Origin: a virus
Lineage: Duplodnaviria > Caudoviricetes
DNA: 64,000 bases
Reading direction: 5' to 3' (one strand)
IMG/VR virus record: IMGVR_UViG_3300028603_000018
Location: 128,001 to 192,000 of that record
The notes under the pieces are model-generated. The model was not told the DNA's origin. It ran no database searches and was given only the letters and a program-made list of their open reading frames with translations. Shown piece after piece: positions 4,223 through 64,000 of this stretch; the stretch's first letter is position 1, and each line of letters opens with the position of its first letter. The position numbers and the translations under genes were made by a program.

Positions 4223-5134
4223 ATGACCGTACTTAAAACGGCTTACGATACAACTATTGGTAAGTTGAAATCTCAAGACAATGCAGATGTAGCTATTAAA
4301 CAAGCTATTTTAACTGGTGAGTTAGGAGCTAGTGATAAAGTTAATACCATTATGCGTATTAAAAATAAAGCGATTGAGGAGATCCCAGCTTTATTATTTC
4401 CCCGAGTACTCCATGTCAATGAAGAAGAGCGTGTCTTTGTAGATATGCGTTACTTCACAACTCAAGGTATTGGATTAGCAGATATCAGGATTAATAACCG
4501 TCCTGAATTTGACTTTTCTAGTTATTGGGCAAGTTATCAATATCGTTGGATTTCTGAACGTCCTAGCAACCTAAGGATTATCTCTCCTATTGGTATGGCT
4601 GCTTACGCTAACTGGGTTAGTGATATGATCTCTAAACGACTGTCGTTAGATATTAGAGAGAGTATTCCTCTAAAAGTAATTACTGCTTACTACTACGCTT
4701 ATCAATTCCAAGATGCTGAGTTTAGTGAAGTAGAGAAGAATAACATCTTCCGTTTAATTAGTCGTAATCTTCATACACCTATTGATATTGTACTTCAGCT
4801 CATTGCTAATGCTGAGCCAATTAATAATCTTCAAGATTATTGTAATGCTTTAAAACAAATCATTGGTAGTATTCGTTTAGATAAACTCACGCCTGGACTA
4901 TTACTTTCATTAGTTCAAGGGTCTTGGTTTGGTGTTAATGCTAGAGAGATTATTGCTGTTGCTTTAGAACACCCTCCGACTTGGCTAGCTATCGTTACAT
5001 CAGCGCTAAATAATAGGATTTATAAATCTACACCTATTATGAAAGCAATTGAACGTTCTCTTAATCGAGTTAGCATCAGTGATGCAGCACTAACATTCAA
5101 ACGAGCCTCTGGTGTAGAAGCTCATTTTAATTAA
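4223..5134 (+). CDS. Virion structural protein (phiKZ gp28-like)
   Basis: 303 aa, divergent from the sheath gene, with an ALEHPPTW motif. Position matches the terminase-sheath block. Confidence 0.65.
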   Translation: MTVLKTAYDTTIGKLKSQDNADVAIKQAILTGELGASDKVNTIMRIKNKAIEEIPALLFPRVLHVNEEERVFVDMRYFTTQGIGLADIRINNRPEFDFSSYWASYQYRWISERPSNLRIISPIGMAAYANWVSDMISKRLSLDIRESIPLKVITAYYYAYQFQDAEFSEVEKNNIFRLISRNLHTPIDIVLQLIANAEPINNLQDYCNALKQIIGSIRLDKLTPGLLLSLVQGSWFGVNAREIIAVALEHPPTWLAIVTSALNNRIYKSTPIMKAIERSLNRVSISDAALTFKRASGVEAHFN

Positions 5135-5148
5135 GAAGATTTAAAACC

Positions 5149-7759: not shown

Positions 7760-9448
7760 ATGAGTAATACGCCTTTTCTTAACCCTCTTGGTATTGACGG
7801 GAGGGCTTTAGTTCAAGATCCCTATAGTACATGGAAGATATGGAACTATAGTGAGATTTATTTTGGAGCAGGGAGTCCATCCACTGCTATTTATATCCCT
7901 AAAGTCAATGACCTCATTCTGAATTTAGATGAAGGTATCTTCTATATTGTTCTTCAGATTGATCCCGTTAGTTATATTCCTGTAATTAAACGTTATGTCA
8001 TCAGCACGGCTTCCGAAGAAGATGGTAATGGACTTCTACTTGGTGTAGGCGTTGGTTCGGCTTCAGAGTTGAATCGTGTTTATATCAACAAAACCACTAT
8101 TCCTTATTCAGCAGTTGTCGATAGGAGGAAATGGGTGGGTGGATCTGATGCTGCCTATGCTATCGCTTATCGTGGTTCTCCTGTATCAGGTAGTCCTATG
8201 GAGGTCATCTCAATTATGTATGACACCAATAGTTCTACTATCTTAGGTAATGAGATTCCACTGGAGGATGTTACTGCACCTGGTTTTGCTAATTGTAAAG
8301 TTATTAAACCTTTCTATACGAAGGTTGATTTACAAGATAATGAGATTGTTACTATCATTGTTTATAATAATGAGAATACAGCCATTGAGCGAGGACAGCT
8401 ACTTGTTGAAAATACAGCCTGGATTCGAGATCAAACTGATAGTCTGAAATACATTGTCGATATCTTCTGCACTTCACCCTTCATTAAAGATACTGATCCT
8501 GATCTTATTGTCTATCCTCTTAATCTACCAAAGAACGCTTTAAACTTATTTGGTACAGTTCTTTATAGTGATGGTGAACAACGTACCTTACCAGTTAATG
8601 GTGGTAAGTTCTCTATGATGGGTCTTTCTGGTTTCGTAGCAACTTATCCTAACCAAACAGATGAATGGGTATTAAACTATCAATTAGATCAAAATGAGGC
8701 TGTTCATGGAGCTGTAGTGGGTCAACATTATTCCATGACAAAACCCTATCGCGTCAAAGTAACTCAAGTCCAAGGAATGTATTCTGTTAAACTCTTTGGA
8801 TTCCCTGTATGGATTAACGCAGTCAATGGCTACACTATGCGTTGGTTCTTATACAGTTTAGAGAGACAAGAGTGGTTTGATGTCACTCCTTACGTTCGTG
8901 TTGGTGCGAATAGCCCTGCGTTTGATCCTACCCTTTATGGTGTTAACCAACAAATTCAATGGGTAATTGAATTAAAAGATGTTGACCCTGTCTATGGTGA
9001 CTGGACTCATACTCAGGTTATTAATATCGCCTTAATGCGTCAAGGAACAGAAGTCATCATGCCTCGCTGGACAGTAAGAGATCAGGGTCAGGCTGAACCT
9101 TACGGACGTGATATTGAATGTCAAATGACTTTCATCAACCAGAACTTACGTCAGCTTAATTTTGGTTCTGGTTTAGCTACAAAAGCTCAATGGTTAGAAA
9201 AAGCGTATTATGAACTTAACCCGCTTTATAATTCCTTAGCTGAAACTAAACCTATTGAACCCGATTATATTAAGATTAGAACAGGGTCTGGTTTAGAGAT
9301 GGAAATCAGTGTGGATGATTGGAATAGTGATATTCCGACTAACCTTCCAATTGTCGCTAATGAAACCCTTTTCTTACATTTCGTAAAACGTACTGCTGAT
9401 AGTGAACTACAGTTAGCTGTTGGTGGGTGGTCTGTAAGACAACTGTAA
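7760..9448 (+). CDS. Virion structural/baseplate protein (phiKZ gp26-like)
   Basis: 562 aa, beta-rich, adjacent to the terminase. Assigned by synteny. Confidence 0.68.
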   Translation: MSNTPFLNPLGIDGRALVQDPYSTWKIWNYSEIYFGAGSPSTAIYIPKVNDLILNLDEGIFYIVLQIDPVSYIPVIKRYVISTASEEDGNGLLLGVGVGSASELNRVYINKTTIPYSAVVDRRKWVGGSDAAYAIAYRGSPVSGSPMEVISIMYDTNSSTILGNEIPLEDVTAPGFANCKVIKPFYTKVDLQDNEIVTIIVYNNENTAIERGQLLVENTAWIRDQTDSLKYIVDIFCTSPFIKDTDPDLIVYPLNLPKNALNLFGTVLYSDGEQRTLPVNGGKFSMMGLSGFVATYPNQTDEWVLNYQLDQNEAVHGAVVGQHYSMTKPYRVKVTQVQGMYSVKLFGFPVWINAVNGYTMRWFLYSLERQEWFDVTPYVRVGANSPAFDPTLYGVNQQIQWVIELKDVDPVYGDWTHTQVINIALMRQGTEVIMPRWTVRDQGQAEPYGRDIECQMTFINQNLRQLNFGSGLATKAQWLEKAYYELNPLYNSLAETKPIEPDYIKIRTGSGLEMEISVDDWNSDIPTNLPIVANETLFLHFVKRTADSELQLAVGGWSVRQL

Positions 9449-9451
9449 CAT

Positions 9452-9490
9452 GTCATAAATAAGAGAGCTAAATGCTCTCTTATTTTTTTC
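9452..9490 (+). terminator. Terminator hairpin
   Basis: aaataagagagc-taaat-gctctcttattt plus T-run. Confidence 0.75.
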
Positions 9491-9509
9491 TTTAGAAAAA
9501 AGGTCAGTA

Positions 9510-10179
9510 ATGAGTAAGGAACTGCTATTAATTAGTTCTACCCCCCCCCTCCCCTCCAGGCATATTTACTAAGTTAAAACCTGCTACTGACGTAAGATTC
9601 CATCTCCAGTCAGTTGATGGTGTAATCAAAGATGTCAGTTCTTATAACCATGTTATTAATAATAGTGGACATATTACTGTCGATAGTGAAGGGTTTATTA
9701 ATAACGGTAACACATCAGGCTTCTTAGAAATATCAAGTGCTAATTTTCCTTCTCTAATGCAAGACTTTACAGTAGAGATGAGAGTTAAAATTGCAGATTT
9801 ATCTAAACTATATCACCAAATGGTGGGTAACTGGACTAGTAGGAACTTTCAATTTACTTACCGTGGGGTTAGTGGTAATTATTTTGGATTTGAAGATACG
9901 CCTGGTTGGGTTATTTCCCCTTATAGTCCTGAATTAAATACTTATATGCATATAGCATTTGTAAGACATAATAATGTTTTCTTTTGTTATAAGAATGGAG
10001 TTAAAGCTCAGTTAAGTCGTTTACCTACAGACGAGGTTAGAAGAACTGAGAATATCAAGATATTCCAAGTTTATGGTAGTACAGGTTATTCCTTGATAGG
10101 CGGGTTGTATGATGTAAGATTTTCCCAGAGTGCTGTATATACTGATAACTTTGAAATCAACCCTTTACCCTTAGTCTAG
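9510..10179 (+). pseudogene. LamG/concanavalin A-like protein, frameshifted at a C9 tract (candidate phase-variable gene)
   Basis: ATG 9510 gives MSKELLLISST, then stops at 9570-9572. The +1 frame is open from 9532 to 10179. Removing one C gives 222 aa, collinear with the 223-aa paralog at 23725 (MSRELLITSS). LamG-like FTVE...HIAFV...Y.NG pattern. Confidence 0.8.
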
Positions 10180-10194
10180 TGCAGTTCACTATAT

Positions 10195-10233
10195 GTCATA
10201 AATAGGAGATCCTTTTGAGATCTCCTATTATGC
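10195..10233. repeat. 39-nt palindromic repeat, type B copy 1 (bidirectional terminator-like)
   Basis: Exact reverse complement of 24875-24913; one mismatch to 60086-60124. Confidence 0.85.
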
Positions 10234-10235
10234 TC

Positions 10236-12497
10236 TTAAAAGAGATTCACTGAACTACTGTACATATTTCGATAATTGTTTAATGAATTAGCACTATCAA
10301 AGTTTTTAAAACTAGATTCAGTAGTGCGGCGAGATCGCAGCCTTTGTTCTCTAGCTTTCTCAATTAACTCATGCATGTTATTAATACTTCTATCGTTTTT
10401 TACAGTATTTCTATCGAGATGTTTTAATTCTCTCTCTAACTGAGAAACAACAAATTCTTCTTTCTCTTTACCTAACCTTTCTAATAGTTCAGCAATCCGT
10501 TTATGGTTCTTTTCTTGTTGATAACGTTTTGTTCTTTCAGCAAGTGTTAGTGTAACTTCTTCTCTTCTTGGTTCTTCTGAGAAGATATTGAGAGGATCTA
10601 AACCATAGAAAGATAAGTTCTTACCAAAAAGTAGTAACCATACGTTGAGTAACCAAGCAATTACCTGATCATCATGACCATTAGTACCGTGATCAATCCT
10701 ACCATTTTTCACTGATAAACCCATGAGTTGTTGGATTAAGGTTTTATCATTAATAACTTCAGCAAAGCGTTGAGTAGCTGTAGAGAGTACTGTACCGTAT
10801 AGTCGTTCTCTTGTATAGTTCCCTGCACCAGAAGTCTTATAGCCAAACAACCCTTTATTCATGTCGTAGAAGTTAGCGCGGCGAGCATGGATAGGTTTTC
10901 TTAATTCTTCAAAGAGTTCTTTCATCTCTTCTTTTTCTTGAACGATTCTATTAAAGATACGTTTAAAGGGATCTATTCCATGACTCATTAGAATCTCAGA
11001 TACTTGATCGATAATAGCCATACCACTACTGCGACATTCAGGAACCCATAATACACGAGGATATTTTATAAGAATATCTGCGATCCATTCAGAAAAACTA
11101 AATAAACTCATGTTGTTAAAAGTAGCTGCTGCTACTGTATTTAGTGATCGAGAATCTGTAAAGACAATACCCATGGTATCACCCCCTACAGCATCAGAGC
11201 TATCCATACCCATGAGAATGTCTCTTTCATTCATCACGGTTTGAATATCTCTTTGAGGAATATACCAGTTTAATAAGAAGTTCTTCTTATTATCATAATC
11301 CCTATAAACAACCTTCTTTTCACTTTTAACAATCCTAGCAGTTGTATCAGGGCTGAAAGGACTATCAGCTTGTCCGTTTGTCCATACGTTAAGATAATCT
11401 CGTTCAGCACCATCTCTTGGACCAGAAGCTTTAGCAATTTTCTCTCTTAACCAATCATCTGTATAACCTAATTGACGGTGAGAAAAAGTGGCATTAATAC
11501 GCGGAACAATGATCTGAGGAATCTTAGCCCCTTCTTTCGTATAGCTCGGACTCTTTCTACACATGGATATAATACGATTTGTTAAATCCTCATGATTCTT
11601 AGCGTCGAGAAAGAAAGGATCGTCCCAGTGAGCTGCTGTTTGAAGAAGTTCATTATAGAAGAAAGATCCTGAAGGACTATCAATCTTACCTGACGTCGTT
11701 GTACAGATAACTCCATGTGGCTCGTTCTTTGTTTTTGCGATATCTTGAGCAGCACCTGCTGATGCCATAGCTGCTGGAAACGCAATTGAAAAGTTAGGCT
11801 GAAAAGGACCTTCGTCGAATAGCATGGTTTCAGTCGTCATACCTCGACCCACGTTATTTGCACCTGCTAAGCTAGATTGAGGAAGGAAGGTTTGGAAAGC
11901 ATTACCTACTTGAGAAAATGTAATGTTCTCTGAGTTCCTACTTCCCTTTTTACCCATCTGGTTTAAATAACCTGGTAGAAGATCAACAATATCCTTTAAT
12001 CGCTTAACGTTTTCACGACGCAGTGTATCGTCTTTAGTTAATAGGTTAATGTTAGCATTACGACAAAGGATATTTCCTAGTAATGAAACTAACTCATCTA
12101 AACTTAAAGACTTACCTGTCTGACGTGGTTGAATTAGTGTAATAAAGATATGATTAAAATAACACCAATACAAACACATGTTTCCACGGTTTGCTAAGAA
12201 CAACCCAGGTTCACTGCCTGAACGGGCTGGAGCGCGAGCTACTTCTCTAAAGAAGTACCAAGGGTTAATACGACACTCATAGCTGATAGCACCTATTTCT
12301 TCTTTTGTTAGATCGGGTGCAAAAGGATCTATTCCTTTTAGATTAGGATTAATCAATGCTAATGGAAAAGCATGATTCTTAATACCCATGTCTCGCCATA
12401 AAGCAGCAATTTGAATAAAACTCTTATTCTTAGTCGATGTATCAATATCTGCTGTGGGCCAATAATCCCAATCGTCTCTAAACAATATCATACTCAT
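10236..12497 (-). CDS. terL: Terminase large subunit (phiKZ gp25-like)
   Basis: Walker A PRQTGKS, Walker B MLFDEG, TTT coupling motif, nuclease acidic residues GMDSS and HDDQVIAW. Confidence 0.93.
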   Translation of the reverse strand: MSMILFRDDWDYWPTADIDTSTKNKSFIQIAALWRDMGIKNHAFPLALINPNLKGIDPFAPDLTKEEIGAISYECRINPWYFFREVARAPARSGSEPGLFLANRGNMCLYWCYFNHIFITLIQPRQTGKSLSLDELVSLLGNILCRNANINLLTKDDTLRRENVKRLKDIVDLLPGYLNQMGKKGSRNSENITFSQVGNAFQTFLPQSSLAGANNVGRGMTTETMLFDEGPFQPNFSIAFPAAMASAGAAQDIAKTKNEPHGVICTTTSGKIDSPSGSFFYNELLQTAAHWDDPFFLDAKNHEDLTNRIISMCRKSPSYTKEGAKIPQIIVPRINATFSHRQLGYTDDWLREKIAKASGPRDGAERDYLNVWTNGQADSPFSPDTTARIVKSEKKVVYRDYDNKKNFLLNWYIPQRDIQTVMNERDILMGMDSSDAVGGDTMGIVFTDSRSLNTVAAATFNNMSLFSFSEWIADILIKYPRVLWVPECRSSGMAIIDQVSEILMSHGIDPFKRIFNRIVQEKEEMKELFEELRKPIHARRANFYDMNKGLFGYKTSGAGNYTRERLYGTVLSTATQRFAEVINDKTLIQQLMGLSVKNGRIDHGTNGHDDQVIAWLLNVWLLLFGKNLSFYGLDPLNIFSEEPRREEVTLTLAERTKRYQQEKNHKRIAELLERLGKEKEEFVVSQLERELKHLDRNTVKNDRSINNMHELIEKAREQRLRSRRTTESSFKNFDSANSLNNYRNMYSSSVNLF

Positions 12498-36907: not shown

Positions 36908-38815
36908 ATGAGTCAACAAGATTCTGTTCGCTGGGGTAATACGCCTGAGTCTAACCGGCCTTCTGCAGCAGGTCAGGAAACAAATGAGAAAGTTCTCGCT
37001 AGTGATCAACTCGGACAAGAGCGTTACAATCCAGACGAACTGGGTGTTGGTATCTTTGGCGCAGGAATGCAGATGTCGTTCAACTCTGGTTCGGAAATTC
37101 TCTTCCGTGCCAAAGAAGCACTCGATGCCCAGGTTAAGAAAGCCTCTGAGCAACTGCGTCGTGAAAATCAGATCAAACTAACCATTCTAGACCGTAGTGA
37201 GCATAAACGCCTTCCTTACAGCGCTCTGGTTCTTTCCCTGACCAATCCGCTGGTAGCTAAAGGTACATCGTTCTTCGTCTTCGTTATTGCTGGTGATCAA
37301 GGTGCGATCGTCCGTAATGAAATTCTACCTAATAACCAAGGTCAGTGCGAAACGCTTTCCTTACCTGCTGATGCACTGAACCAAGTCATCAAAGAAGCAG
37401 GAGAAATCCTACGTGGTTTGAATCCTGGTGTAACAGATCTCTTCTCGGCTTCGGGTATTGTTGTAACGAACGACACTTTCTCTTGGGATAGTGAAAAAGA
37501 CGTTTATCAACTCCTGGCCCGTGGTTATAACTCTTGCCTAGCTGTACTTTCTAGTAAAGGTCCTCGTTGGGATGATGTTAACTTGGCAAAGGTAATGGGT
37601 TCAGAACTGGAAGTTGTTCTGCAACGCACTCGTGGCCAAGCTCAACCGCGTGACGTACTGGGGCGTCCGAAGCGTCGTGATCTGGAAGTGTCTCTGCGCA
37701 CTCGTCAGGTTATGAGTCCTCAAACAGGTGATATCATCCATAAAGCAGAAACGATTGCTAGTCTGTCTGTTTATGGTGATCTGCTTTGGGGTCCGGAGAC
37801 GGTTCAAAAAGTAAACCAGTTTGGACAACCTGTTGTCGAGACCAAAACCTATAAGCAGCGCGTTATCATCACCCAGATGCGTAACCACCAAGCTTATACG
37901 TTGGGTTCGCAGCTAATGTCCTTTATCCCAGCCATTGCTCTGTTCCAGCCAAAAGCAACTCACCAAGCTTTTATCCCATCACCTGATTCTTCGATGGGTA
38001 AGTCTGATGACGTTGGTGTTCTGCAACTGGAGGCTAAGTACCATCAAGGCAATATGAGCGGTCAAGAAGCTGCTCAGCGTGTGGATGTCTTTAATAGCCC
38101 GCCTACCCTGATCAGTGACTACCTGGAGAAAATCCTCTCTGACAATATTGAAGTCGCACTTGATATTGAAGTCGGTGGTGAGGACTACCTGCATAATTCA
38201 GTACTGCTCAAAGCAGCACTGTCTGGTAGCGGTGCTTCGGGTAATAAAGACCACGATCGTGCATATACTAAACTCGTTGAAACCATGACGGTTCTAACTA
38301 ATGGTAAGTTTGCTGATTTCTGGCAAACTGGTGCACCTATTGCATTCGTAGATTCAGTTCGTGAAGTAGGTCATTTCACCAACGATGATGGTAACCTGGA
38401 AGATACTCGTCATGTGGATACTATTTCCACGATGAATAAGTTTATCGAAAACAATCCGGATTACTATCGTGTTTGGTCTGATGCTCAAGTAGCAACTAAC
38501 CGCACAATGCAAGCTCGTATGCGCGACATGCGTAACGTAACTGAGTACATGATCTCGCCTCCGACTTACACGACTCGTGTATTCCGTGTGATCCTGTCCG
38601 CAGCCTTCGTTAAAGCATATTTCGATTCCATCTCAGCTCTGGGTATTCGTCTTAACCTGGTTCTGCCTAATGAGACTCGTACTGAAGATCGTACGGGTTA
38701 TGTGAGTACTTCTAGCTCTATTCAAATGGGTGTGGGTGCAGGTATGCTCAATACCTTTGGTGGTAGCGTTGCTGGTACAATGTCACCTTCCAACTTCCAA
38801 CGTTGGTCTGCGTAA
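36908..38815 (+). CDS. chmA: Chimallin, major phage-nucleus shell protein (phiKZ gp54-like)
   Basis: 635 aa, directly upstream of the nvRNAP beta-prime N gene, strongly optimised codons, own terminator. Size and synteny match chimallin. Confidence 0.85.
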   Translation: MSQQDSVRWGNTPESNRPSAAGQETNEKVLASDQLGQERYNPDELGVGIFGAGMQMSFNSGSEILFRAKEALDAQVKKASEQLRRENQIKLTILDRSEHKRLPYSALVLSLTNPLVAKGTSFFVFVIAGDQGAIVRNEILPNNQGQCETLSLPADALNQVIKEAGEILRGLNPGVTDLFSASGIVVTNDTFSWDSEKDVYQLLARGYNSCLAVLSSKGPRWDDVNLAKVMGSELEVVLQRTRGQAQPRDVLGRPKRRDLEVSLRTRQVMSPQTGDIIHKAETIASLSVYGDLLWGPETVQKVNQFGQPVVETKTYKQRVIITQMRNHQAYTLGSQLMSFIPAIALFQPKATHQAFIPSPDSSMGKSDDVGVLQLEAKYHQGNMSGQEAAQRVDVFNSPPTLISDYLEKILSDNIEVALDIEVGGEDYLHNSVLLKAALSGSGASGNKDHDRAYTKLVETMTVLTNGKFADFWQTGAPIAFVDSVREVGHFTNDDGNLEDTRHVDTISTMNKFIENNPDYYRVWSDAQVATNRTMQARMRDMRNVTEYMISPPTYTTRVFRVILSAAFVKAYFDSISALGIRLNLVLPNETRTEDRTGYVSTSSSIQMGVGAGMLNTFGGSVAGTMSPSNFQRWSA

Positions 38816-48765: not shown

Positions 48766-50289
48766 ATGTATCAAAATAACCCACGCTGTCGTATTCTTCG
48801 TTTAGTGATGGCTCGTACTAATGGTTATCAGCCACAGTATATTCGTCCCTATGCGATGACTACGGAGACTTATAAGCGTAATGAGATTTTGAATCGTCTA
48901 GACCCAAACCGACCCATCAGCCCAACGACATTAGGTGGTGAAGTATCTGGTCTCATCAAACCCAGTATTAACATTGACGACACTTTAATGCTAGACCTCC
49001 CAGCAGGTTGGGGATCAGAGCGTCTTCGTTGGATTATGACAATTGAAATCCAGCACATGGGCGCAACTATCATTCAGTACTTAACAGGATATACTGATCA
49101 CGTAGGTGTATCACTACAAACTCAATCCATCGATCCTAACTTACGTTTCTTTATTAATAATAGCTTCCAGTTTCGTGTAGATTCTGAACTGCAAAACGGT
49201 GTACCGATTCGTCGCCTCGTGCCAACACGCTTAAACCAAGTTCTAACTAATCTAAACTATAGCAGAAATCAATTAATGAATTCCGCTTTAGTTCGTCCTC
49301 AAGATGTACTAAACTTTGTTGGAACGGCTTCTATTCGGGATCAGATCTATAGCCAAAACATTGCTTATGAAACAGCAACACTAACTAACCGGGCTACATT
49401 AGGAAATATTTCTAATATTAATCCCACAGCTTTTACTGCTCGAATCCTCGATGCACAACGTCGTGCTTTTGTGGATGGGAATCAATACGGTCAGTCCAAT
49501 GATTCAATTATTGAACGTGCTATTGATTTCGTTCGTGAAGATTCTCAGCGTAATGATCCTTTCCTAAACGTTCTTCTTTCTAGCTCATCTGAATCACTAA
49601 TTGGAAATGATTTCACTTGGTCTACGCTAAACAACATTGATCCAAACGTAAACAATGAACAGATTACGCAATTGATCATGAAAGATAGTGCTTCCCCAAC
49701 AATGGCTATGAATGCCAGTAACATGGGACTAGCGTATTTAGATTCTACTAATTCCTCTCGTTGGGATGAATGTAATTATCTTCAACAAGCAGCTACTATT
49801 ATTCGAGACTCAACAAACTCTTTGATGGCTGAGACGATGTTTAACTCTATCGCCTTCTCTGTAACTAATGAGTCAGGTCAATTCACGTATTCGTATTCAG
49901 GCGGAACTTTGTTTGTACCAGATGTTGACCCAAGTCCTTTCTTTTATCGATTCATTGAAAGGCTGATTAACGAAGCAGTTATGGATATCTCCTTTAACAA
50001 TAATACGCGACTTGAACTCCATGTCATCAGTGAATTTGTTGGTGATACCAAGATTCAATTAAAGGTTGGTGATCAATATGGTGAGTTCGTAGCTCCTACT
50101 TTTTGCTCCAGTCTGACAGCTCCTGTCATTGCAGGATCTCAAGGAACTGCTCAGCTCTTAGCAGATAATATTGGTAACATTGTTAATGAGGTGTATGATA
50201 ACTTCTCTAACAAGATCTCTCATGCTGTTACGAACATCTCTGATAACCCGAGTTATCCAAGTGCTGTCATGGATAATTTCCCTCTGTAA
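48766..50289 (+). CDS. picA: Phage-nucleus import factor PicA/Imp1 (phiKZ gp69-like)
   Basis: 507 aa with Y.PQYIRPY, GW.SERLRW, YLTGYTD and APTFCSSL.APV motifs; directly after the gp68-like gene. Confidence 0.68.
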   Translation: MYQNNPRCRILRLVMARTNGYQPQYIRPYAMTTETYKRNEILNRLDPNRPISPTTLGGEVSGLIKPSINIDDTLMLDLPAGWGSERLRWIMTIEIQHMGATIIQYLTGYTDHVGVSLQTQSIDPNLRFFINNSFQFRVDSELQNGVPIRRLVPTRLNQVLTNLNYSRNQLMNSALVRPQDVLNFVGTASIRDQIYSQNIAYETATLTNRATLGNISNINPTAFTARILDAQRRAFVDGNQYGQSNDSIIERAIDFVREDSQRNDPFLNVLLSSSSESLIGNDFTWSTLNNIDPNVNNEQITQLIMKDSASPTMAMNASNMGLAYLDSTNSSRWDECNYLQQAATIIRDSTNSLMAETMFNSIAFSVTNESGQFTYSYSGGTLFVPDVDPSPFFYRFIERLINEAVMDISFNNNTRLELHVISEFVGDTKIQLKVGDQYGEFVAPTFCSSLTAPVIAGSQGTAQLLADNIGNIVNEVYDNFSNKISHAVTNISDNPSYPSAVMDNFPL

Positions 50290-56465: not shown

Positions 56466-58550
56466 ATGAGGGATTTAAACATAATGAGTGCTATAACACT
56501 AAAGGCTAGAAAGCTATTAGGTGTTCCTACAGAAGTATTATGGGAAACTCTGAACGGGGAATTCTATTTAGAGTTTGATGATGGTGTTATCTTAGCTGAC
56601 GAAGCTAGTACTATCTATAGTTCTTATATCTGGAAATTCATCAGTAAGTTCCCAGATATCCCATTTCTTAAAAAACATCATATCAACTCTCATCTTGGTA
56701 AGAGCCTATTGTCAGTTGAAGCCAACGGTAGACTTTTTGATAGTGTACTTTGGGATGTTTTTGATTGGGCTGTCTATGGAGTTGATCCAAGGAACGAAGA
56801 TCTTAAAAGTAGAGTTCCTGACCCCAGTACTGCTAAGCTTAACGTATTGGAGTTTAAAGAAGAGTTAGCTGAAACTGCTTGGGGGACATTAAATGAGATG
56901 TATAACGATCTAAGCGTTCGTTGTGAGCCTTGGGTCGTAGGCATTAGCATTAATGATCTTGTTGAAGTAACTCAACATAATCCAATTAAAGAAGTGTTAG
57001 AAGGTTTCTTACCTCCTGTACAGGAATCTTTGGATAAGATCTATGATACCCTAGATGAAGCACTCTTTAATGATCCGAAGCTAGAGAACAATATCCTTTC
57101 TCGTTTAGTTCGATCTGGTTTGATTAATAAGAACCAGTTACAGCAATGCGTAGGAGCACGAGGTTTTATTACTGATATTGACTCTAGTCTATTTAGACTT
57201 CCTATTCTTCGTAACTTAACTCAAGGTATTCGATCAGCTTATGATTCACAAATTGAATCTAGGAGTGCTGCTAAGTCACAAGCTTATTCAGAAGAACCTC
57301 TAGAGCAATCAGAATACTTCTCTCGTAGGCAGCAATTGATCTCACAGACACTGAAAAATCTAGTAGAAGGTGATTGTGGTGCGAAAGAAGGATTAGGTTG
57401 GAACGTTGGGGAGGATGACTTAAAGCATCTAGTAGGAAAGAACTATTACGATGATGAAGGAGTGCTTCGATATATTAAAAGCAGTGATAAACATCTTATT
57501 GGTAAGACAATTACTTTAAGATCTCCTTTTAAATGCCAAACCACGCATCCTACAGGCATTTGTAGTACGTGTATGGGTCAACTAGCACTCTCTGTATTTA
57601 GACTCTCTAACGTGGGTCAGGACACAGCTGTATCGATGCTCTCTGATGTAGGTCAGCGAGTATTGTCTGTAAAGCACTTGGATGGTTCAAGTGTTGTAGA
57701 TTCTCTTACAGTTGATCTAGAGACTCGTAAGTACATCAGAGTAGGTAAGGATGGGTCGAGTTATTATCTATCTCCTGATCTAAAGAATGCAAGTAGCATT
57801 GAGTTAGTCTTTAGTCCTTATACTGTTCCAGGCTTTACGGATATTAAACAATGTAAAGATACTAGTGATCTTTTCTTATCACGCGTCTCTAGGATGAATT
57901 CTTTAGGGATGATTGTTAAAGAAAGAAATCGAGTTATTGAAGTTGCTTTAGATGTCGGTTTAGCTAAACGTAAAGCTTCCCTTGCTTTTGATGTGATTAA
58001 TCTCATTAAAGAAAGAGGTTGGAAAGTTGTCCAGACTGAAGCTGGTGATACTGTCTATGTAGTTGATATTACTGGTCTAGATCAGAATACGAAGTTACTT
58101 ACAGTGCCATTACGTCACTTTAACATGGGTGATCAAGCAAAAGCTATTGCTGCTTTACTAGAGTCTAAAACTGGAGCAGTTAAAGAACGAGATGAAGACA
58201 CACCTATCTCGGAATTTATTGCTGAGCTATATGAGACAGTTAATAGCCGCCTCTCTGTTAACTTTGCGGTACTTGAAGTAATTACCTACAGTATCATGAT
58301 TGTCTCAGCTAAGGGTGAGGATTATTCATTACCAAAACCCTGGACACAATCTGGGTTAGGTGTTAAGGATAGGACCTTTAGACGCCGTAGTGCTTCTGTT
58401 GAGATGGCTTATCAAGGACAGCAGTTTGCTATTAAAGATCCAGTTAGGTATAACTATACTAATGTCATGGATCATCAAATGGATGTCTTTATTGATCCTC
58501 AGTCTGTTGTTGAGAGGGAAGCTAAGATGGAGAAAAATAACCAGCGATGA
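56466..58550 (+). CDS. nvRNAP beta-prime C-terminal subunit (phiKZ gp74-like)
   Basis: GARG, SEYFSRR, DCG, LRSPFKC...ICSTCMG Zn site and QRVLSVKH. Confidence 0.9.
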   Translation: MRDLNIMSAITLKARKLLGVPTEVLWETLNGEFYLEFDDGVILADEASTIYSSYIWKFISKFPDIPFLKKHHINSHLGKSLLSVEANGRLFDSVLWDVFDWAVYGVDPRNEDLKSRVPDPSTAKLNVLEFKEELAETAWGTLNEMYNDLSVRCEPWVVGISINDLVEVTQHNPIKEVLEGFLPPVQESLDKIYDTLDEALFNDPKLENNILSRLVRSGLINKNQLQQCVGARGFITDIDSSLFRLPILRNLTQGIRSAYDSQIESRSAAKSQAYSEEPLEQSEYFSRRQQLISQTLKNLVEGDCGAKEGLGWNVGEDDLKHLVGKNYYDDEGVLRYIKSSDKHLIGKTITLRSPFKCQTTHPTGICSTCMGQLALSVFRLSNVGQDTAVSMLSDVGQRVLSVKHLDGSSVVDSLTVDLETRKYIRVGKDGSSYYLSPDLKNASSIELVFSPYTVPGFTDIKQCKDTSDLFLSRVSRMNSLGMIVKERNRVIEVALDVGLAKRKASLAFDVINLIKERGWKVVQTEAGDTVYVVDITGLDQNTKLLTVPLRHFNMGDQAKAIAALLESKTGAVKERDEDTPISEFIAELYETVNSRLSVNFAVLEVITYSIMIVSAKGEDYSLPKPWTQSGLGVKDRTFRRRSASVEMAYQGQQFAIKDPVRYNYTNVMDHQMDVFIDPQSVVEREAKMEKNNQR

Positions 58551-60079
58551 AATCCTTTAGAATCACTACAAGTAGTCATGGTTTTAAAGTAGATGGTATT
58601 TGTGACTCTAGAGCTACTGAAGCGATTCATGAATTTTTAAGAAGTTTGCTGCAATATGGTCTTATCAAAGTGGGAAGGCATTTCGTTAGAAAGCCAGTTA
58701 AGACCTTTGCAGCAAGTAATGCTTCTAGAAATTATTATCGATTCCACATCAATGACTTAAAAGCTTTCTTAAGTCATATGGCTGAATATGGTTTCAAAGA
58801 AAATAACTATACCATCATTAATACTCCACTTTATGAACCTAGGTATGTAGAACTCCCACTTAAACCCAAATGGAAAGCTAGGGAAAACCAAATCACAGCA
58901 ATTGATTATGTTGCTGATGAAACAAATGGACCTGCATGTAAACTCATCCCAGCTCAACCAGGGTTTGGGAAAGGTTTAATTTCCATGATGGGTATTTCTG
59001 CTGTAGGTGTCTTTGCTATTTATCTTCTACGTCCGATGTATATGGATAAATGGAGAGAAGAGTTAGAAGATACTTATGACATCGACCCTTCTGAAATCAT
59101 TACCATTCAAGGCAATGGTGAACTAAAGAAGATGTTAGACCAGCAGAAAAAGAAAGAGTTTTTTGGTAAAGTTGTTGTCATTAGTAATAAGACTTACCAA
59201 GCTTGGTTAAGTAAGTACGAAAAGTTAGGTCATAAGAAATTCTTAAAGCTCTACCCATGCACACCAGAGAATTTCTTTGAGTTTATGAAAGCAGGTTTTC
59301 GATTAATTGATGAAGGTCATCAAGACTTCCATCTAAATTGTAAAATCGACTATTATACAAACGTACCTAACTCTATTACTCTTACTGCTACACTAATTAC
59401 AAAAGACCCTTTTCTTAGGAAAAGGATGGATGTGCATTATCCTAAAGATAGGCAATGTAAAGTAGAGCAGATTAATAAGTACATTGATTCATCTGCTTAC
59501 TTCTACCAATTCAAACATCCTGAAAAAATAAGGACAACGGAATTTGGTAGTCCCAACTATTCTCACCTAGCTTTTGAGGCTTCTATCTTACAAAAACCTC
59601 AGATTAGAGATAATTACTTCGAAATGATTAAACTCTTAGTCGATGTAGATTTCTTTAAGATCAAAGAAGAAGGGGAGAAGTTTGTCGTCTTTTGTTCTAA
59701 GATTGACTTTAGTAGAGAGTTATGTGCTTATTTACGGAAAGTCTACCCAAGTGTAGATATTAGAACTTATGTTGAAGATGATCCTTACGAGAATCTAATT
59801 GACCCTGTAGGACGTGTGACGACTTATGGTTCAGCAGGTACAGCGCAAGACATCCCAATGTTAAGAACTAATATTAATACCATTGCAATGGATTCATTAG
59901 CGGGTAATATCCAAATCTTAGGTAGAACTCGTGTAATGAAAAGTGGTAATACGCCACGGTATGTTTATCTCGTAGCTGAAAACATTGATAAGCATATTAC
60001 TTATCATAATGGTAGGAAAACCATGTTAGAAGAACGCGCTCGTAGTTTTAGAGTTCGTTGGCATGATAAACCTATTTAA
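58547..60079 (+). CDS. Superfamily 2 helicase (phiKZ gp75-like)
   Basis: Q motif ENQ, PGFGKG, DEGH, TAT and QILGRTR. Confidence 0.88.
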   Translation: MKSFRITTSSHGFKVDGICDSRATEAIHEFLRSLLQYGLIKVGRHFVRKPVKTFAASNASRNYYRFHINDLKAFLSHMAEYGFKENNYTIINTPLYEPRYVELPLKPKWKARENQITAIDYVADETNGPACKLIPAQPGFGKGLISMMGISAVGVFAIYLLRPMYMDKWREELEDTYDIDPSEIITIQGNGELKKMLDQQKKKEFFGKVVVISNKTYQAWLSKYEKLGHKKFLKLYPCTPENFFEFMKAGFRLIDEGHQDFHLNCKIDYYTNVPNSITLTATLITKDPFLRKRMDVHYPKDRQCKVEQINKYIDSSAYFYQFKHPEKIRTTEFGSPNYSHLAFEASILQKPQIRDNYFEMIKLLVDVDFFKIKEEGEKFVVFCSKIDFSRELCAYLRKVYPSVDIRTYVEDDPYENLIDPVGRVTTYGSAGTAQDIPMLRTNINTIAMDSLAGNIQILGRTRVMKSGNTPRYVYLVAENIDKHITYHNGRKTMLEERARSFRVRWHDKPI

Positions 60080-60085
60080 ATGAAA

Positions 60086-60124
60086 GCATAATAGGAGATC
60101 CCAAAAGGATCTCCTATTTATGAC
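60086..60124. repeat. 39-nt palindromic repeat, type B copy 3
   Basis: 1 mismatch to 24875-24913. Confidence 0.85.
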
Positions 60125-60158
60125 TTGTTATTAATAAACATTGAAAAAGGTAAAATAA

Positions 60159-60449
60159 ATGACTAATGAATTTGTAGAAGTTCAATTTGACATCACCGGT
60201 CGTATTCGTCAGAAAGTAAGACTCACTGATCCCAATATGACATTGGTTGAATTTGAAACAGGTTTAAAAACCGGAGATATTCTCCCTTCTATCTGTTATG
60301 GTAGTACGGATAGTGAAAGCCATTACGTACAATTTAGAAAAGATGGAGAAGTCTCGGACTCTTTTGTAATTGTCATAGTAGGAGTTGTAGAAGCAACCGA
60401 TGTGGATTCTGATACGGAATACAGTCAGTTTGATGTCGAGGTTATCTAA
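60159..60449 (+). CDS. Hypothetical protein, 96 aa
   Basis: AAGGT RBS and downstream terminator at 60463-60510. Confidence 0.65.
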   Translation: MTNEFVEVQFDITGRIRQKVRLTDPNMTLVEFETGLKTGDILPSICYGSTDSESHYVQFRKDGEVSDSFVIVIVGVVEATDVDSDTEYSQFDVEVI

Positions 60450-60588
60450 TAATAGAGAAGCATTATAGGGATGACTCTAGTCTCCCTATAATACCACCTT
60501 TCTTTTTTTTATTTAAATAATTAAATATAACAATATTTGAACCTATGAACGAAGTTATATATTTTTATTTTAATAAGGTCAAAAAGAT

Positions 60589-61230
60589 ATGGCATTTACT
60601 ACTCAATTCTCTATTCATACTTCACCCTATCTTAATCCACTTGATGCAAAGAGACAGGCTTTTAGTGTAGAGGCAGATAATCGGAAAGAAGCTTTAAAAG
60701 AATCTCTTAATAAAATCATTGATGAGTTAGATGATGAAACAATCAAACAACCCAGCATCACTCTAAACATTATCTATGCAGAAGAGAATGATAAAGAAGA
60801 TTTCTACGTAGCTTATTTTGATTTTAAGAAAGACTCTTATCTAGATATTAAGAGTTCTATTCTTATTCCTCATACCTTCACTACATTAGCTCCTGAGGAA
60901 ATCATCTCTATTAAGTTTAAGAAGCTCTCTGTTAAACCAAGTGAACAATCATTATGGGTAGATGAAGAAGGTTCTATGTTCATCAGTAATTATCCTAATG
61001 TTTATTTTAATAGAAATGATCTTCCTGTAGAGAACTTTGACTATGACTTCAATGTCTATTATGATTTAGCCATGTTCAAAGGACTAACTAATGTTGAGTC
61101 TTACAATTATGAAGTACCTGTTCTCTATCAGAAGCGAGTAGATAAAGCCATTGCATTTACTACTCGTATTAAAGAAGCGGCTACTTTAGCCCAAGTACCT
61201 GAGAGTGTTATTAAAGAAGTGTTTGGTTAA
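60589..61230 (+). CDS. Hypothetical protein, 213 aa
   Basis: TAAGGT RBS and downstream palindrome at 61246-61283. Confidence 0.7.
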   Translation: MAFTTQFSIHTSPYLNPLDAKRQAFSVEADNRKEALKESLNKIIDELDDETIKQPSITLNIIYAEENDKEDFYVAYFDFKKDSYLDIKSSILIPHTFTTLAPEEIISIKFKKLSVKPSEQSLWVDEEGSMFISNYPNVYFNRNDLPVENFDYDFNVYYDLAMFKGLTNVESYNYEVPVLYQKRVDKAIAFTTRIKEAATLAQVPESVIKEVFG

Positions 61231-61429
61231 AAGGTATAAATAGAAGGCATAATTAGGAGTCCTTTAGGACTCCTCTTTTTGCCGTATTCTAGACTATTTT
61301 AAATCTATATCACTAACATGATAGAACTGGTCAAGCTGTCTTTCTTATATAAAGAGGTTAGGTCTGGATATTCGTGGTATCCAGACCTATGACCCACCTC
61401 TACACTTCTTTACTACAAAGGAGATAAAA

Positions 61430-61657
61430 ATGAATATACACTATTCAGGTTTACATAGTATTATACTAAAACCAAATGAAAAAACTAAAATCCCTGTTCA
61501 CATCATCACGTTAAGTAATTACAATGCGGATGAATTCTTAGATTATATTACAGATCAAATCCATCAAAACAATATATTGAATATTCATTACAATATTGAA
61601 AATCAAAGTACTGATCAACTGAGATACAAACCTCCTGCCTTTAGACAGAGGTGTTAA
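61430..61657 (+). CDS. Small hypothetical protein whose C-terminus was replaced by the TnpB element
   Basis: AAGGAG RBS. Codons after GAT 61613-61615 run through the left-end hairpin. The reconstructed empty site reads STD-WNCLRY-stop. Confidence 0.6.
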   Translation: MNIHYSGLHSIILKPNEKTKIPVHIITLSNYNADEFLDYITDQIHQNNILNIHYNIENQSTDQLRYKPPAFRQRC

Positions 61658-62979
61658 TATAATTAGGACATTTAAATGACTACTATTACTAAAGGTTATA
61701 AGTTTAGGTTAGAACCTAACCAAACACAACGTGACCTCTTAGTGAGGTCATTTGGTCATACGAGATTTGTATGGAATGAACTTTTAGCTCAATCTAAGAT
61801 TCAATATGAGCTACACAAATTTAATGGGTTAGTAGATAAACCTAATTTGAATGAAATTGAATTAGTAAATAAGATTACTAATCTAAAACTCTTTCATCCG
61901 TGGTTAAGTGAAGTATCTAACGTAGCACTACAACAAAAGGTCCGAGACCTCGCTTCAGCTTATCGACATTGTTTTCGTAATCTCAAACAAGGTAAAATAG
62001 CTTTTCCTAAGTTTAAAAAGCGTAATAATCGTAATAGTTTTCGATTAACTAAAAATGGGTTTAGACTTAAAGATGGTGAACTCTATATCGCTAAGTGCGA
62101 CCAACCACTAAAAGTCAGGTGGTCTAGAGACTTGCCTTCTGAGCCTTCTAGTTGTACTATTAGTCAGGAACCCGATGGATCTTATTATGTCTCTTTTGTC
62201 TGTCAGGTAGATCCTAAACTTACGAATGGAGTAAAGCAAACAGGGATTGATTTAGGTCTTACAGATTTTGCAATATTGTCTGATGGAGGGCGGATAGCGA
62301 ATAATCGCTTTTTAGTTCAAGCCTTAAACCAGTTAAAACGCGCACAGAAAACACTGAGTCGTCGTAAAAAGGGTTCTAAGAACCGGAATAAAGCTAGAAT
62401 TAAAGTCGCTAAACTCTACCAGAAAGTCACGAATCAAAGAAATGACTTCTTACATAAACTCTCTCGTAAACTAGTGAACGAGAACCAAGTGCTAGTAGTA
62501 GAGAGTTTGAATGTGGGCGGGATGATTAAGAACCGTCATTTAGCTAGAGGTATTTCGGATGTTAGTTGGAGTAGGTTTATAGGTTATTTAACTTATAAAT
62601 CTAAAGAATCACATCACTGCTCTTTGTTAATGATGGACCCTTTTTATCCTTCGAGTAAACTCTGTGGAAGTTGTGGAGTGAAGTATGAGAATCTAAAACT
62701 TTCTGAACGTCAATGGACTTGTTTTAATTGTCATACTACTCATGACAGGGATCTCAATGCAGCTCGTAATATTCTAGCTAAAGGTTTAGAAACCTTTAAA
62801 AACCTATCTCCAGATTATAGCTGGCTGTCTATACCAGTTATATGTAATAGGTTTAATTAGTAGTAAATTTACCGTAGGGACTACGGGAGTTGGTCTAAAG
62901 ACCAACTAAGCTCATGGAGAGGCTGTAGTTTAACCTCAGTGAAGTGAGAACCCTCCTCGTTTACGGGGAGGAGGTTCAA
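61616..62979 (+). mobile_element. IS200/IS605-family element with TnpB only (IS1341-like), no tnpA
   Basis: Begins after CTGAT; left hairpin 61630-61652; right hairpin ccctcctcgtttacggggagg; ends TTCAA; no target duplication. Confidence 0.8.
61676..62860 (+). CDS. tnpB: TnpB RNA-guided endonuclease
   Basis: YKFRLEP...FGHTRFVWN helix-turn-helix, RuvC-I GIDLG, RuvC-II VESL, Zn ribbon CGSC/CFNC and RuvC-III DRDLNAARNI. The catalytic D-E-D triad is intact. Confidence 0.95.
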   Translation: MTTITKGYKFRLEPNQTQRDLLVRSFGHTRFVWNELLAQSKIQYELHKFNGLVDKPNLNEIELVNKITNLKLFHPWLSEVSNVALQQKVRDLASAYRHCFRNLKQGKIAFPKFKKRNNRNSFRLTKNGFRLKDGELYIAKCDQPLKVRWSRDLPSEPSSCTISQEPDGSYYVSFVCQVDPKLTNGVKQTGIDLGLTDFAILSDGGRIANNRFLVQALNQLKRAQKTLSRRKKGSKNRNKARIKVAKLYQKVTNQRNDFLHKLSRKLVNENQVLVVESLNVGGMIKNRHLARGISDVSWSRFIGYLTYKSKESHHCSLLMMDPFYPSSKLCGSCGVKYENLKLSERQWTCFNCHTTHDRDLNAARNILAKGLETFKNLSPDYSWLSIPVICNRFN

Positions 62980-62999
62980 TGGAACTGTCTTAGATATTG
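62865..62999 (+). ncRNA. Predicted TnpB reRNA/omegaRNA scaffold plus guide (guide about 62980-62999)
   Basis: Hairpins ccgtag-gga-ctacgg and gttggtct-aa-agaccaac, then the right-end hairpin and TTCAA, followed by flank tggaactgtcttagatattg. The 5' end is uncertain. Confidence 0.72.
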
Positions 63000-63088
63000 A
63001 GATGTGTCAGAGTAGTTGAAAACAAGAAAAATAAAAGAGAGGGTCTAAACAGACTCTCTCTTTCAACACTTCTTTTTTTTTTTATTTA

Positions 63089-64000
63089 CTACATCAACTG
63101 TTTTTTAGGATCATACTTAGTTGTAGCAAGTGCTGTACCATGCATAGATTTCATTACGATGTTCATAAAGCGGTTCCCAATTGCAGTGATAGCAGAGCCA
63201 ATAGAAGTGGGATCAGCAGCTTGCTTAACACCTACACAAGTAGCACAATAGTCGGTATGTTTTTTAGTACAATAAATAGGACTACGCACTTGTAAGACTT
63301 TACCTAAGTATTGCTCAGTGACTTCTTCAGTAATAGGTTTAGTTTTAGCATCTGTCTCATCGATATAATAAAAGCCAATTAACTCTTTCGATGTCAAGTT
63401 ACTTATTTCAATAGGTAGTCCAAAACGTGTACCGCAATCATCACCCACTACGTTAGCATTACTAAAGGCACGTAAAAGCCATTTTGCCAATTCACCACCT
63501 AATGCAGTCTCCACACCCCGAGAATATGAACCTGATCGGATATTATTAGCGTAATCAGTAAAACGAGTTAAATCCCAACCTTCAGATAAAGATTGTTTGA
63601 TAGGCGTAGCTTTAGGATCTACAACCAATCCTCCTTCTTTACCTGTAAACATGTAAAGCTTTTTCCTAATAACAGAAACATCTTTACCAGCAGTTAATAA
63701 ACCTTCTGAAGGATCACCCTTACGATAAGCTTTATCTAACGCTTCTAGTTCTTTACTAATAGCAGCTTCTACAGCAGGAATATGCAACTGTCCTTCATAT
63801 TTAGCAAATAACTCATCTCTTTTTTCTTTCATTCCTGGGATAGATCGTAAACTCTTCTCAGTATCGCCAGGTGTAAAGAGTAAAGCAAATTCACTAAACA
63901 TAAAAACTGCTTGAAAATATCTCTCAACATCATCGTAGTATAAATGCTGAGGATTTCTTTCTACACCAGGAGGAGGAAGAGGTTGTAGTAAGGCGGGAAT
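63089..64000 (-). CDS. Virion RNAP beta-prime middle subunit (phiKZ gp80-like), 5'-truncated by the window edge
   Basis: RSGSYSRGVETALGG bridge-helix-like segment, DDCGT, RSPIYC...CATCVG and MKSMH. The frame is open to position 64000. Confidence 0.82.
   Translation of the reverse strand: MPALLQPLPPPGVERNPQHLYYDDVERYFQAVFMFSEFALLFTPGDTEKSLRSIPGMKEKRDELFAKYEGQLHIPAVEAAISKELEALDKAYRKGDPSEGLLTAGKDVSVIRKKLYMFTGKEGGLVVDPKATPIKQSLSEGWDLTRFTDYANNIRSGSYSRGVETALGGELAKWLLRAFSNANVVGDDCGTRFGLPIEISNLTSKELIGFYYIDETDAKTKPITEEVTEQYLGKVLQVRSPIYCTKKHTDYCATCVGVKQAADPTSIGSAITAIGNRFMNIVMKSMHGTALATTKYDPKKQLM

Follow-up and report, generated by a model that had tools for sequence, protein, structure and literature searches.

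TnpB proteins are RNA-guided nucleases of IS200/IS605-type elements, and in bacterial elements that carry tnpB alone the transposase TnpA is usually supplied by an autonomous copy in the same genome. For ISDra2 of Deinococcus radiodurans the transposon-associated motif (TAM) is TTGAT (PMC2806898), and the right-end element RNA (reRNA, or omega-RNA) uses about 16 nt of the right flank as its guide and targets the donor joint beside the TAM (PMC8612924). Meers et al. (PMC10055086) treat TnpB as a homing nuclease, the element being expected to be maintained by cutting of the vacant site. In chimalliviruses the phage DNA is shielded from those host defence proteins that target DNA (PMC11087766). 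This shielding also makes these phages hard to edit. Here we analyse a stretch of 64,000 nucleotides (the window) that corresponds to positions 128001–192000 of a Caudoviricetes contig (C90; IMG/VR record IMGVR_UViG_3300028603_000018; 244,062 bp, 35.8% G+C), and in it a tnpB element at 61616–62979. Our preferred reading, which we hold fairly probable, is that it is non-autonomous, consists of tnpB and an omega-RNA, and belongs to a lineage carried by phages; it would probably be a homing element that is now fixed in the sampled population. Its features, in window coordinates, are as follows.

61430–61657, + strand: 75-aa accessory open reading frame (ORF) from the ORF list, with a strong Shine-Dalgarno sequence, its 3' end apparently replaced by the element
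61611–61615, + strand: CTGAT, putative TAM and left target site, sharing four of five bases with TTGAT
61616–61675, + strand: putative left end, 60 nt, with a weak imperfect hairpin at 61630–61652
61676–62860, + strand: tnpB, encoding a predicted 394-aa RuvC nuclease with a CxxC...CxxC zinc ribbon (Pfam, PDB match, residue positions)
62866–62979, + strand: omega-RNA (reRNA) scaffold and right end (covariance models, family covariation, RNA fold), with a provisional 5' limit
62872–62886, + strand: stem-loop 1 (SL1) of the scaffold
62889–62906, + strand: extra, lineage-specific hairpin of the scaffold
62911–62914 with 62945–62948, + strand: long-range stem of the scaffold, CTCA with TGAG
62952–62971, + strand: terminal hairpin of the scaffold with a TTTA loop, followed by the tail AGG-TTCAA
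62975–62979, + strand: TTCAA, right-end terminal motif (TnpA cleavage site or TEM), where the family alignment stops
62980–62995, + strand: predicted 16-nt guide TGGAACTGTCTTAGAT, a copy of the right flank placed by the position rule of Karvelis 2021 (PMC8612924)

By its domains, catalytic triad and omega-RNA the product of 61676–62860 is TnpB (IS200/IS605 OrfB), and nuclease activity is predicted for it. The Pfam domains HTH_OrfB_IS605 (6e-15), OrfB_IS605 (RuvC; 3.5e-29) and Cas12f1-like_TNB (2.4e-18) follow one another in the protein, all above gathering scores, and residues 6–371 align to the solved ISDra2 TnpB (PDB 8h1j/8bf8; E 2.5e-71). The RuvC triad, described as intact in a first-pass annotation of this DNA, does occupy the RuvC positions of ISDra2 TnpB: D192 (62249–62251), E276 (62501–62503) and D359 (62750–62752) correspond to ISDra2 D191, E278 and D361. 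The D/E/D triad is kept in 13 members of the clade described below, and the window protein has the two CxxC pairs of its zinc ribbon. Within the 4.13-Mb assembly this is the sole tnpB.

We found a structured omega-RNA on the tnpB strand, 3' of the gene and ending at the right end of the element. A covariance model seeded with the window (R1) scores 76 bits here, its single match on the whole of C90, and finds 69 matches, every one directly 3' of a tnpB homologue. Paired cells make up 92% of the R1 family alignment, against 59% in shuffles and at most 43% in slid controls, and changes on both sides (compensatory) occur in 22 of 23 pairs; these pairing and covariation figures lean towards the model, because the alignment was fitted to it. 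An independent covariance model built from 15 relatives with the window left out (R2) gives one match in the 64-kb window, at 62886–62979 (+), with 51.4 bits and E 2e-12, covering the full model and ending exactly on GGUUCAA. The scaffold folds at −42.6 kcal/mol (z −3.49), and in a search of 61000–64000 no Rfam family matches the element. Among relatives from IMG/VR and GTDB the layout 3' of tnpB is conserved as a stem-loop, GCCYGTGGAGA, a variable stem, TGAAGCRGGAA, a terminal hairpin and (A/T)GGTTCA(A/C), and the window contains each of these blocks. Its long-range stem is a private compensatory pair, CTCA...TGAG, where most relatives have CCTG...CAGG, CCCG...CGGG or CTTG...CAAG. Between the first stem-loop and the GCTCATGGAGA block stands a perfect 7-bp hairpin (62889–62906; GTTGGTC TAAA GACCAAC) that is not in any aligned relative, and R2 placed its first helix on this hairpin rather than on 62872–62886.

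The TTCAA noted in the first-pass annotation at 62975–62979 is present in the sequence, and the right end can be placed firmly at 62979. The same terminus is common to clade members L167, L175 and L177 and to two further viral contigs, L034 (IMGVR_UViG_3300028570_000001) and L015. L066 and L034 hold the same element in different flanks, and their sequences part company right after GGTTCAA. Because of this divergence and the exact end of the R2 match, the right boundary, and hence the guide TGGAACTGTCTTAGAT, is well founded. The guide is readable, as had been claimed, as the 16-mer directly past 62979; its own flank is the only match with at most two mismatches in the 4.13-Mb assembly, which fits the established rule (PMC8612924).

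No transposase accompanies the gene. The Y1 transposase TnpA (PF01797) has no match on C90, its matches in the assembly lying only on high-G+C contigs, and the serine recombinase of IS607-type elements (PF00239) has no match on C90 either; the longest public version of the phage measures 249,759 bp, so that about 5.7 kb was unseen in this search. The claim that the window holds no tnpA is thus borne out and extends to the whole contig, and the search for tnpA and further copies that had been proposed across the genome returned neither a tnpA on C90 nor a second tnpB in the assembly. Only 60 nt separate CTGAT from the tnpB start codon. There is neither a Y1 tnpA within the element, as in an autonomous IS200/IS605 element, nor a serine recombinase beside tnpB, as in IS607. 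On balance we class 61616–62979 as a non-autonomous, tnpB-only, IS1341-like element of IS200/IS605 type that sits in the 3'-terminal part of a small accessory gene of an uncultured chimallivirus, an assignment that we think likely, if with some reserve. No G+C change-point marks its boundaries, the element being phage-like at 31–42% G+C.

By gene content the phage is a divergent chimallivirus, and nucleus formation is predicted from its genes alone. This agrees with the nucleus-forming type named in the first-pass annotation, since genes for chimallin, PhuZ, the non-virion RNA polymerase (nvRNAP) and a gp69-like protein are present. The phiKZ homologues on C90 run in phiKZ order (local phmmer); they include the following.

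36908–38815, + strand: chimallin, the phage-nucleus shell protein (phmmer against phiKZ gp54, E 1.5e-24; tblastn)
48766–50289, + strand: homologue of phiKZ gp69, a reported nuclear import factor (phmmer E 5.7e-26), syntenic with gp68, gp70 and gp71–74 homologues
gp39 (PhuZ) homologue: phmmer E 5e-32
Homologues of nvRNAP subunits gp55, gp68, gp71, gp72, gp73 and gp74: phmmer E 6e-33 to 1e-77
gp70 homologue: phmmer E 8.8e-22
gp50 homologue: phmmer E 7e-116

The chimallin homologue is 21–24% identical (tblastn) to proteins annotated as nuclear shell in Goslar, RAY, Noxifer and FLC9. It has no close relatives in IMG/VR, and the only syntenic relative, L007, has a chimallin 52% identical and a gp75-like gene 64% identical. 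The bin from which C90 comes is about 65% G+C, with low-G+C contigs C90, C39 (145 kb, 37.2%), C87 (87 kb, 39.9%) and C67 (62 kb, 41.3%). Because the other large contigs of the bin are about 65% G+C, we regard C90 as a mis-binned phage genome, and the bin is uninformative on the host.

The nearest relatives of the window TnpB, where their context can be judged, are borne by phages. Outside this nearest group, identity peaks at 43% among 185,579 species genomes of GTDB, at 44% in IMG/VR and at 45% among cultured phages. TnpB homologues are common in phages, with 366 INPHARED records carrying them; one partial match in IMG/VR or GTDB reaches 47%, full-length matches there staying at or below 44%. 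The reference chimalliviruses phiKZ, FLC9, Goslar, RAY and Noxifer carry no TnpB. Among other phage records with TnpB homologues, no chimallin was found in two jumbo phages that share tnpB DNA similarity, nor in 16 large IMG/VR contigs, a search in which the control L007 was recovered (2e-204). Closer TnpB relatives, 47–65% identical, came from a collection of 5.8 billion proteins, in which 4,641 homologues reach E ≤ 1e-40. Together with the window protein these closer relatives make up a single well-supported group, to which the IMG/VR and GTDB homologues do not belong, and the window protein groups with P0004, P0005 and P0006 at 99% local support. Ten clade members have usable flanking DNA, nine of them with long contexts of 8–21 kb, which we typed by tblastn against C90 proteins. 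Eight of the nine long contexts lie among homologues of C90 genes, that is in phiKZ-like jumbo phages, and at different loci.

L167 (P0004; ENA ERZ27256356 k141_66158): by tail-tube, gp29 and VTX genes 60–81% identical to those of C90; a close phage relative, at another locus, with a TnpB 65% identical
L168 (P0012), 5001–6170: by a divergent DNA polymerase gene, with a PF25677 chimallin gene 4.4 kb away; the same 227-kb contig has a further TnpB copy, P0016
L169 (P0029): near SH3DP and divDNApol; its sole C90 homologue is SH3DP, at 27%, which makes the assignment weaker
L171 (P0011): amid homologues of C90 virion genes
L172 (P0059): near SNF2 and divDNAB homologues
L173 (P0070): amid a dozen C90 homologues
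L174 (P0024; JGI 3300063328 Ga0597978_000005), 8432–11170: 24 nt after the orthologue of the 510-aa gene that flanks the window's own locus, hence in the window's neighbourhood; TnpB 49% identical
L178 (P0046), 10001–11218: between gp68/69/70-like genes and nvRNAP beta genes
L170 (P0009): the ninth long context, in another kind of phage
L177 (P0006): the tenth member, with a flank too short to classify

The phage of L174 is a distant chimallivirus with core proteins about 33% identical, and its TnpB and that of the window are not mutual closest relatives. R2 matches an omega-RNA in all judged members but L169 and L172, and no tnpA lies within 10 kb of nine of the clade relatives. The copies in L178 and L168 are inserted within the conserved phage-nucleus core. 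L167 also has, 1.2 kb upstream of its intact tnpB element, a full-length omega-RNA match without tnpB (560–656; 82.8 bits), 79% identical to window 62907–62979 and with the same GGTTCAA end; it is probably a decayed or PATE-like (palindrome-associated transposable element) second element in tandem. Since the nearest relatives sit at different loci of related phiKZ-like phages, the lineage probably is or was active on such genomes, and for the same reason the element is probably a selfish one that spreads among phages which normally keep such nucleases away from their DNA. That the lineage is specific to phages is a lead rather than a result, because the sampling is small and most clade members are on short contigs.

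The left end is the weaker part of the reconstruction. CTGAT stands at 61611–61615 as the first-pass annotation had it, and by analogy with ISDra2 and by the match to L167 it would be the insertion motif, with the left boundary directly after it. The likeness to an ISDra2 pair TTGAT/TTCAA held for its left half, TTGAT being the ISDra2 TAM; the pair itself occurs in L034, a full IS605 with tnpA and the terminus AGGTTCAA, which has TTGAT on its left flank, whereas TTCAA as the right end of ISDra2 was not confirmed. The spacing from motif to left stem is 15 nt in the window, 16 nt in L034 and 18 nt in L167, and in L167, the closest relative, CTGAT ends 61 nt before the tnpB ATG, against 60 nt in the window (chance about 0.01). 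With this boundary, codons 1–62 of the 75-aa ORF (to 61615) would be native and the final 13 codons would be read from the element. When 61616–62979 is deleted, codon 62 (GAT) does run on in frame into TGG AAC TGT CTT AGA TAT TGA, so that the ORF closes with WNCLRY and a stop, as had been claimed, but this proves nothing, because a stop within seven codons is often expected in 36% G+C DNA. The 75-aa ORF was also considered as a decayed TnpA and rejected (BLASTP E 6.4; no Y1_Tnp match even at E 10).

The occupied site is identical in six public contigs, and in two biofilm metagenomes of another study contig fragments 97–99% identical include pieces of tnpB, so that a strain about 2% divergent, from another habitat, also carries the element. 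In the sampled population the element appears fixed. The six contigs and four metagenome runs show the occupied allele only, data too sparse to exclude an empty one. A joint 59511>63573 was rejected as an empty site; it belongs to a distant relative, with about 80% likeness and 25-nt sides. No RNA dataset stands among the listed matches to 58500–64000.

The element stands in a lineage-specific cassette of 3 kb (60159–63088; ORFs of 96, 213 and 75 aa plus tnpB) between two conserved genes that converge on it, a 510-aa gp75-like gene and a 440-aa gene. L007 is without the whole cassette and has about 200 nt between the two orthologues. The 213-aa ORF has no related locus in IMG/VR. It is followed by a terminator-like hairpin with a T-run at 61255–61274, and in the same region a 12-bp hairpin at 61359–61389 lies 40 nt 5' of the 75-aa ORF; because of these two hairpins the 75-aa ORF and tnpB seem to form a transcription unit of their own. 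A sigma-70 promoter scan found no enrichment; the promoters of chimalliviruses are of another type. The octamer TATATCAC occurs nine times on the + strand of C90 (including 61306–61313) and not at all on the − strand, with about 8.5 expected per strand; the + strand count is not an enrichment. From one of these copies it is 117 nt to the downstream 75-aa ORF.

Together, these features suggest how the element may work. It would probably be co-transcribed with the 75-aa gene; TnpB would be made, and the 3' end of the same transcript would give the omega-RNA, whose last 16 nt, TGGAACTGTCTTAGAT, come from the right flank. The TnpB/omega-RNA complex would cut only the uninterrupted allele, in which CTGAT directly precedes that 16-mer, and the occupied allele would be protected because TTCAA stands in place of the TAM. 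In a co-infected cell the break may be repaired from the element-bearing genome, by which the element is copied in (homing), or the rival genome may be destroyed. A copy that has become fixed would now drift under relaxed constraint, which is the expected course for a homing element at a late stage of its cycle. Such RNA-guided homing against element-free sibling phages had been put forward in the first-pass annotation: TnpB, omega-RNA and 16-nt guide are all present and look functional, but neither an empty allele nor an element-free sibling was found.

A number of results weigh against a homing element with these boundaries. Subterminal hairpins had been claimed for both ends. The right one is real and covaries; the left one (61630–61652) folds at −3.1 kcal/mol (z −0.10), a value that 85 of 200 shuffles reach. 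The likeness of the left stem, CCTCCTG...CAGAGG, to the right hairpin, CCTCCTCG...CGGGGAGG, reaches a score attained in 124 of 2000 shuffles (6%), and as proof of the left end it was rejected as not significant. Of the residues that contact the TAM in ISDra2 TnpB (Y52, S56, K76, F77, Q80, T123 and N124; PMC10097598), two of seven are kept (Q80 and T123), Y52/S56/K76/F77/N124 being replaced by D/L/N/V/K; the change of N124, the contact of the first T, to K would be compatible with a changed first base of the TAM. At the right end, 43 of 59 family members have a pair between the final base of the element and the base just 5' of the terminal hairpin. In the window the base 5' of this hairpin is C (62951), which does not pair with the terminal A; the three closest relatives have T (GAAT...TTCAA). 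Searches for element-free relatives with an empty site, the check that had been proposed, returned none: the exact empty junction ACTGATTGGAACTGTCTTAG has no match in IMG/VR, and a gapped pattern that allows any junction (left anchor, N{0,30}, right anchor) has none in JGI metagenome contigs. In the 5.8 billion proteins the 75-aa and 213-aa neighbours match only themselves, and among contigs of the four metagenome runs aligned to 58500–64000 none bridges the element, the biofilm runs leaving 61444–61627 and about 62916–63099 without coverage. Finally, tnpB has 6 non-synonymous and 4 synonymous differences, against 3 and 23 in the flanking 510-, 96- and 440-aa genes summed (Fisher p 0.006; pN/pS about 0.4 and about 0.03), counted on low-depth contigs and among the differences listed. 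This contrast points to relaxed, much weaker constraint on tnpB than on its neighbours, and the mismatch at C62951 points the same way.

The left boundary may lie elsewhere, after the second CTGA (61619–61622) or just upstream of the ATG, in which case the TAM and the reconstructed empty site would be wrong; we regard this as a tentative possibility, but one of some weight. Two CTGA motifs stand only 8 nt apart, a shared TGAGATA block aligns the CTGA of L167 to CAAC in the window, DNA similarity between the two begins just 19 nt before the ATG, and clade members L175, L177 and L174 show no clear left end. The spacing between CTGAT and stem, which fits L034 and L167, and the equal distance from CTGAT to the ATG in L167 argue for the boundary at 61616.

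The main competitor of a homing element is an inert passenger, a stranded relic that is immobile, kept out of the chimallin shell, hitch-hiking and decaying. The substitution pattern of tnpB, the weak left hairpin, the missing transposase and the GAAC..TTCAA mismatch against GAAT in the three closest relatives would all suit a relic, and the tnpB-less omega-RNA remnant of L167 shows that the lineage decays. Yet the frame of 394 codons is open, with triad and zinc ribbon intact, all omega-RNA helices are kept, including the private compensatory pair, another habitat has a strain, about 2% divergent, that still carries the element, and related phages have intact copies at many loci, which implies that spread has succeeded repeatedly; we think a mere relic unlikely. 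Still less probable is an exapted weapon or regulator from which the phage benefits, for instance by killing co-infecting relatives with an intact 75-aa gene, or through another target. The analogy to interference competition by the intron endonuclease gp210 of PhiPA3 (PMC11620839) and the place of the element in an accessory cassette missing from L007 speak for such a use, whereas the guide matches its own flank only, constraint on tnpB is weak beside that on phage genes, and no population with the target allele is known. Nothing in these data specifically supports a benefit to the phage, and we give such a role a small chance at most. We continue to favour a homing element of a phage-borne lineage, now fixed and drifting.

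A further proposal concerns the lineage as a whole, which may have become a specialist of nucleus-forming jumbo phages. In that case TnpB, alone or as a ribonucleoprotein, would pass the chimallin shell, which excludes Cas nucleases, and the element would spread between co-infecting phages by RNA-guided homing and reach new loci without a transposase of its own. We hold this to be possible but doubtful. The recurrence of transposase-less TnpB at many loci of such phages suggests either that the nuclease reaches the phage nucleus or that the element moves when the DNA is exposed, and either answer bears on the selectivity of the shell, on selfish elements and interference competition among jumbo phages, and on phage editing with a compact programmable nuclease. 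A lineage that does pass the shell would provide the first known case of an RNA-guided DNA nuclease at work in the phage nucleus; our literature search found no paper that joins TnpB with the phage nucleus.

Among described systems, the ISDra2 TnpB/reRNA complex (PDB 8H1J, 8BF8, 8EXA; Karvelis 2021, Nakagawa 2023), from an IS200/IS605 element of D. radiodurans, has the same three-domain protein, triad and zinc ribbon, an omega-RNA at the 3' end of the gene and the right end of the element, a right-flank guide, and a left 5-base motif, TTGAT, which the CTGAT of the window resembles. The window TnpB is only about 40% identical to it, has no tnpA, has CTGAT in place of TTGAT, and resides in a lytic jumbo phage, whereas ISDra2 lies on a bacterial chromosome. 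The tnpB-only elements of IS1341 type and the PATE-like members of IS200/IS605 are likewise transposase-less and keep the right end and the omega-RNA, but in contrast to the bacterial tnpB-only elements the window copy has no source of TnpA on C90. The full IS605 elements of the viral contigs L034 and L015 share the omega-RNA architecture and the AGGTTCAA terminus; they differ in that a Y1 tnpA is present and that the hairpins of the two ends are clear and resemble each other. The TnpB proteins of L034 and L015, only 41–43% identical, fall outside the clade of the window, and no chimallin was found on these contigs. Another described system is gp210 of PhiPA3, an intron-encoded HNH endonuclease which is likewise a selfish chimallivirus nuclease and acts on the genome of a co-infecting relative (Birkholz et al. 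2024, PMC11620839). It is protein-guided, resides in a group I intron and has an experimentally shown activity, whereas that of the window element is predicted. What is new here is the phage-borne TnpB lineage, of which the window copy is an otherwise ordinary-looking tnpB-only element.

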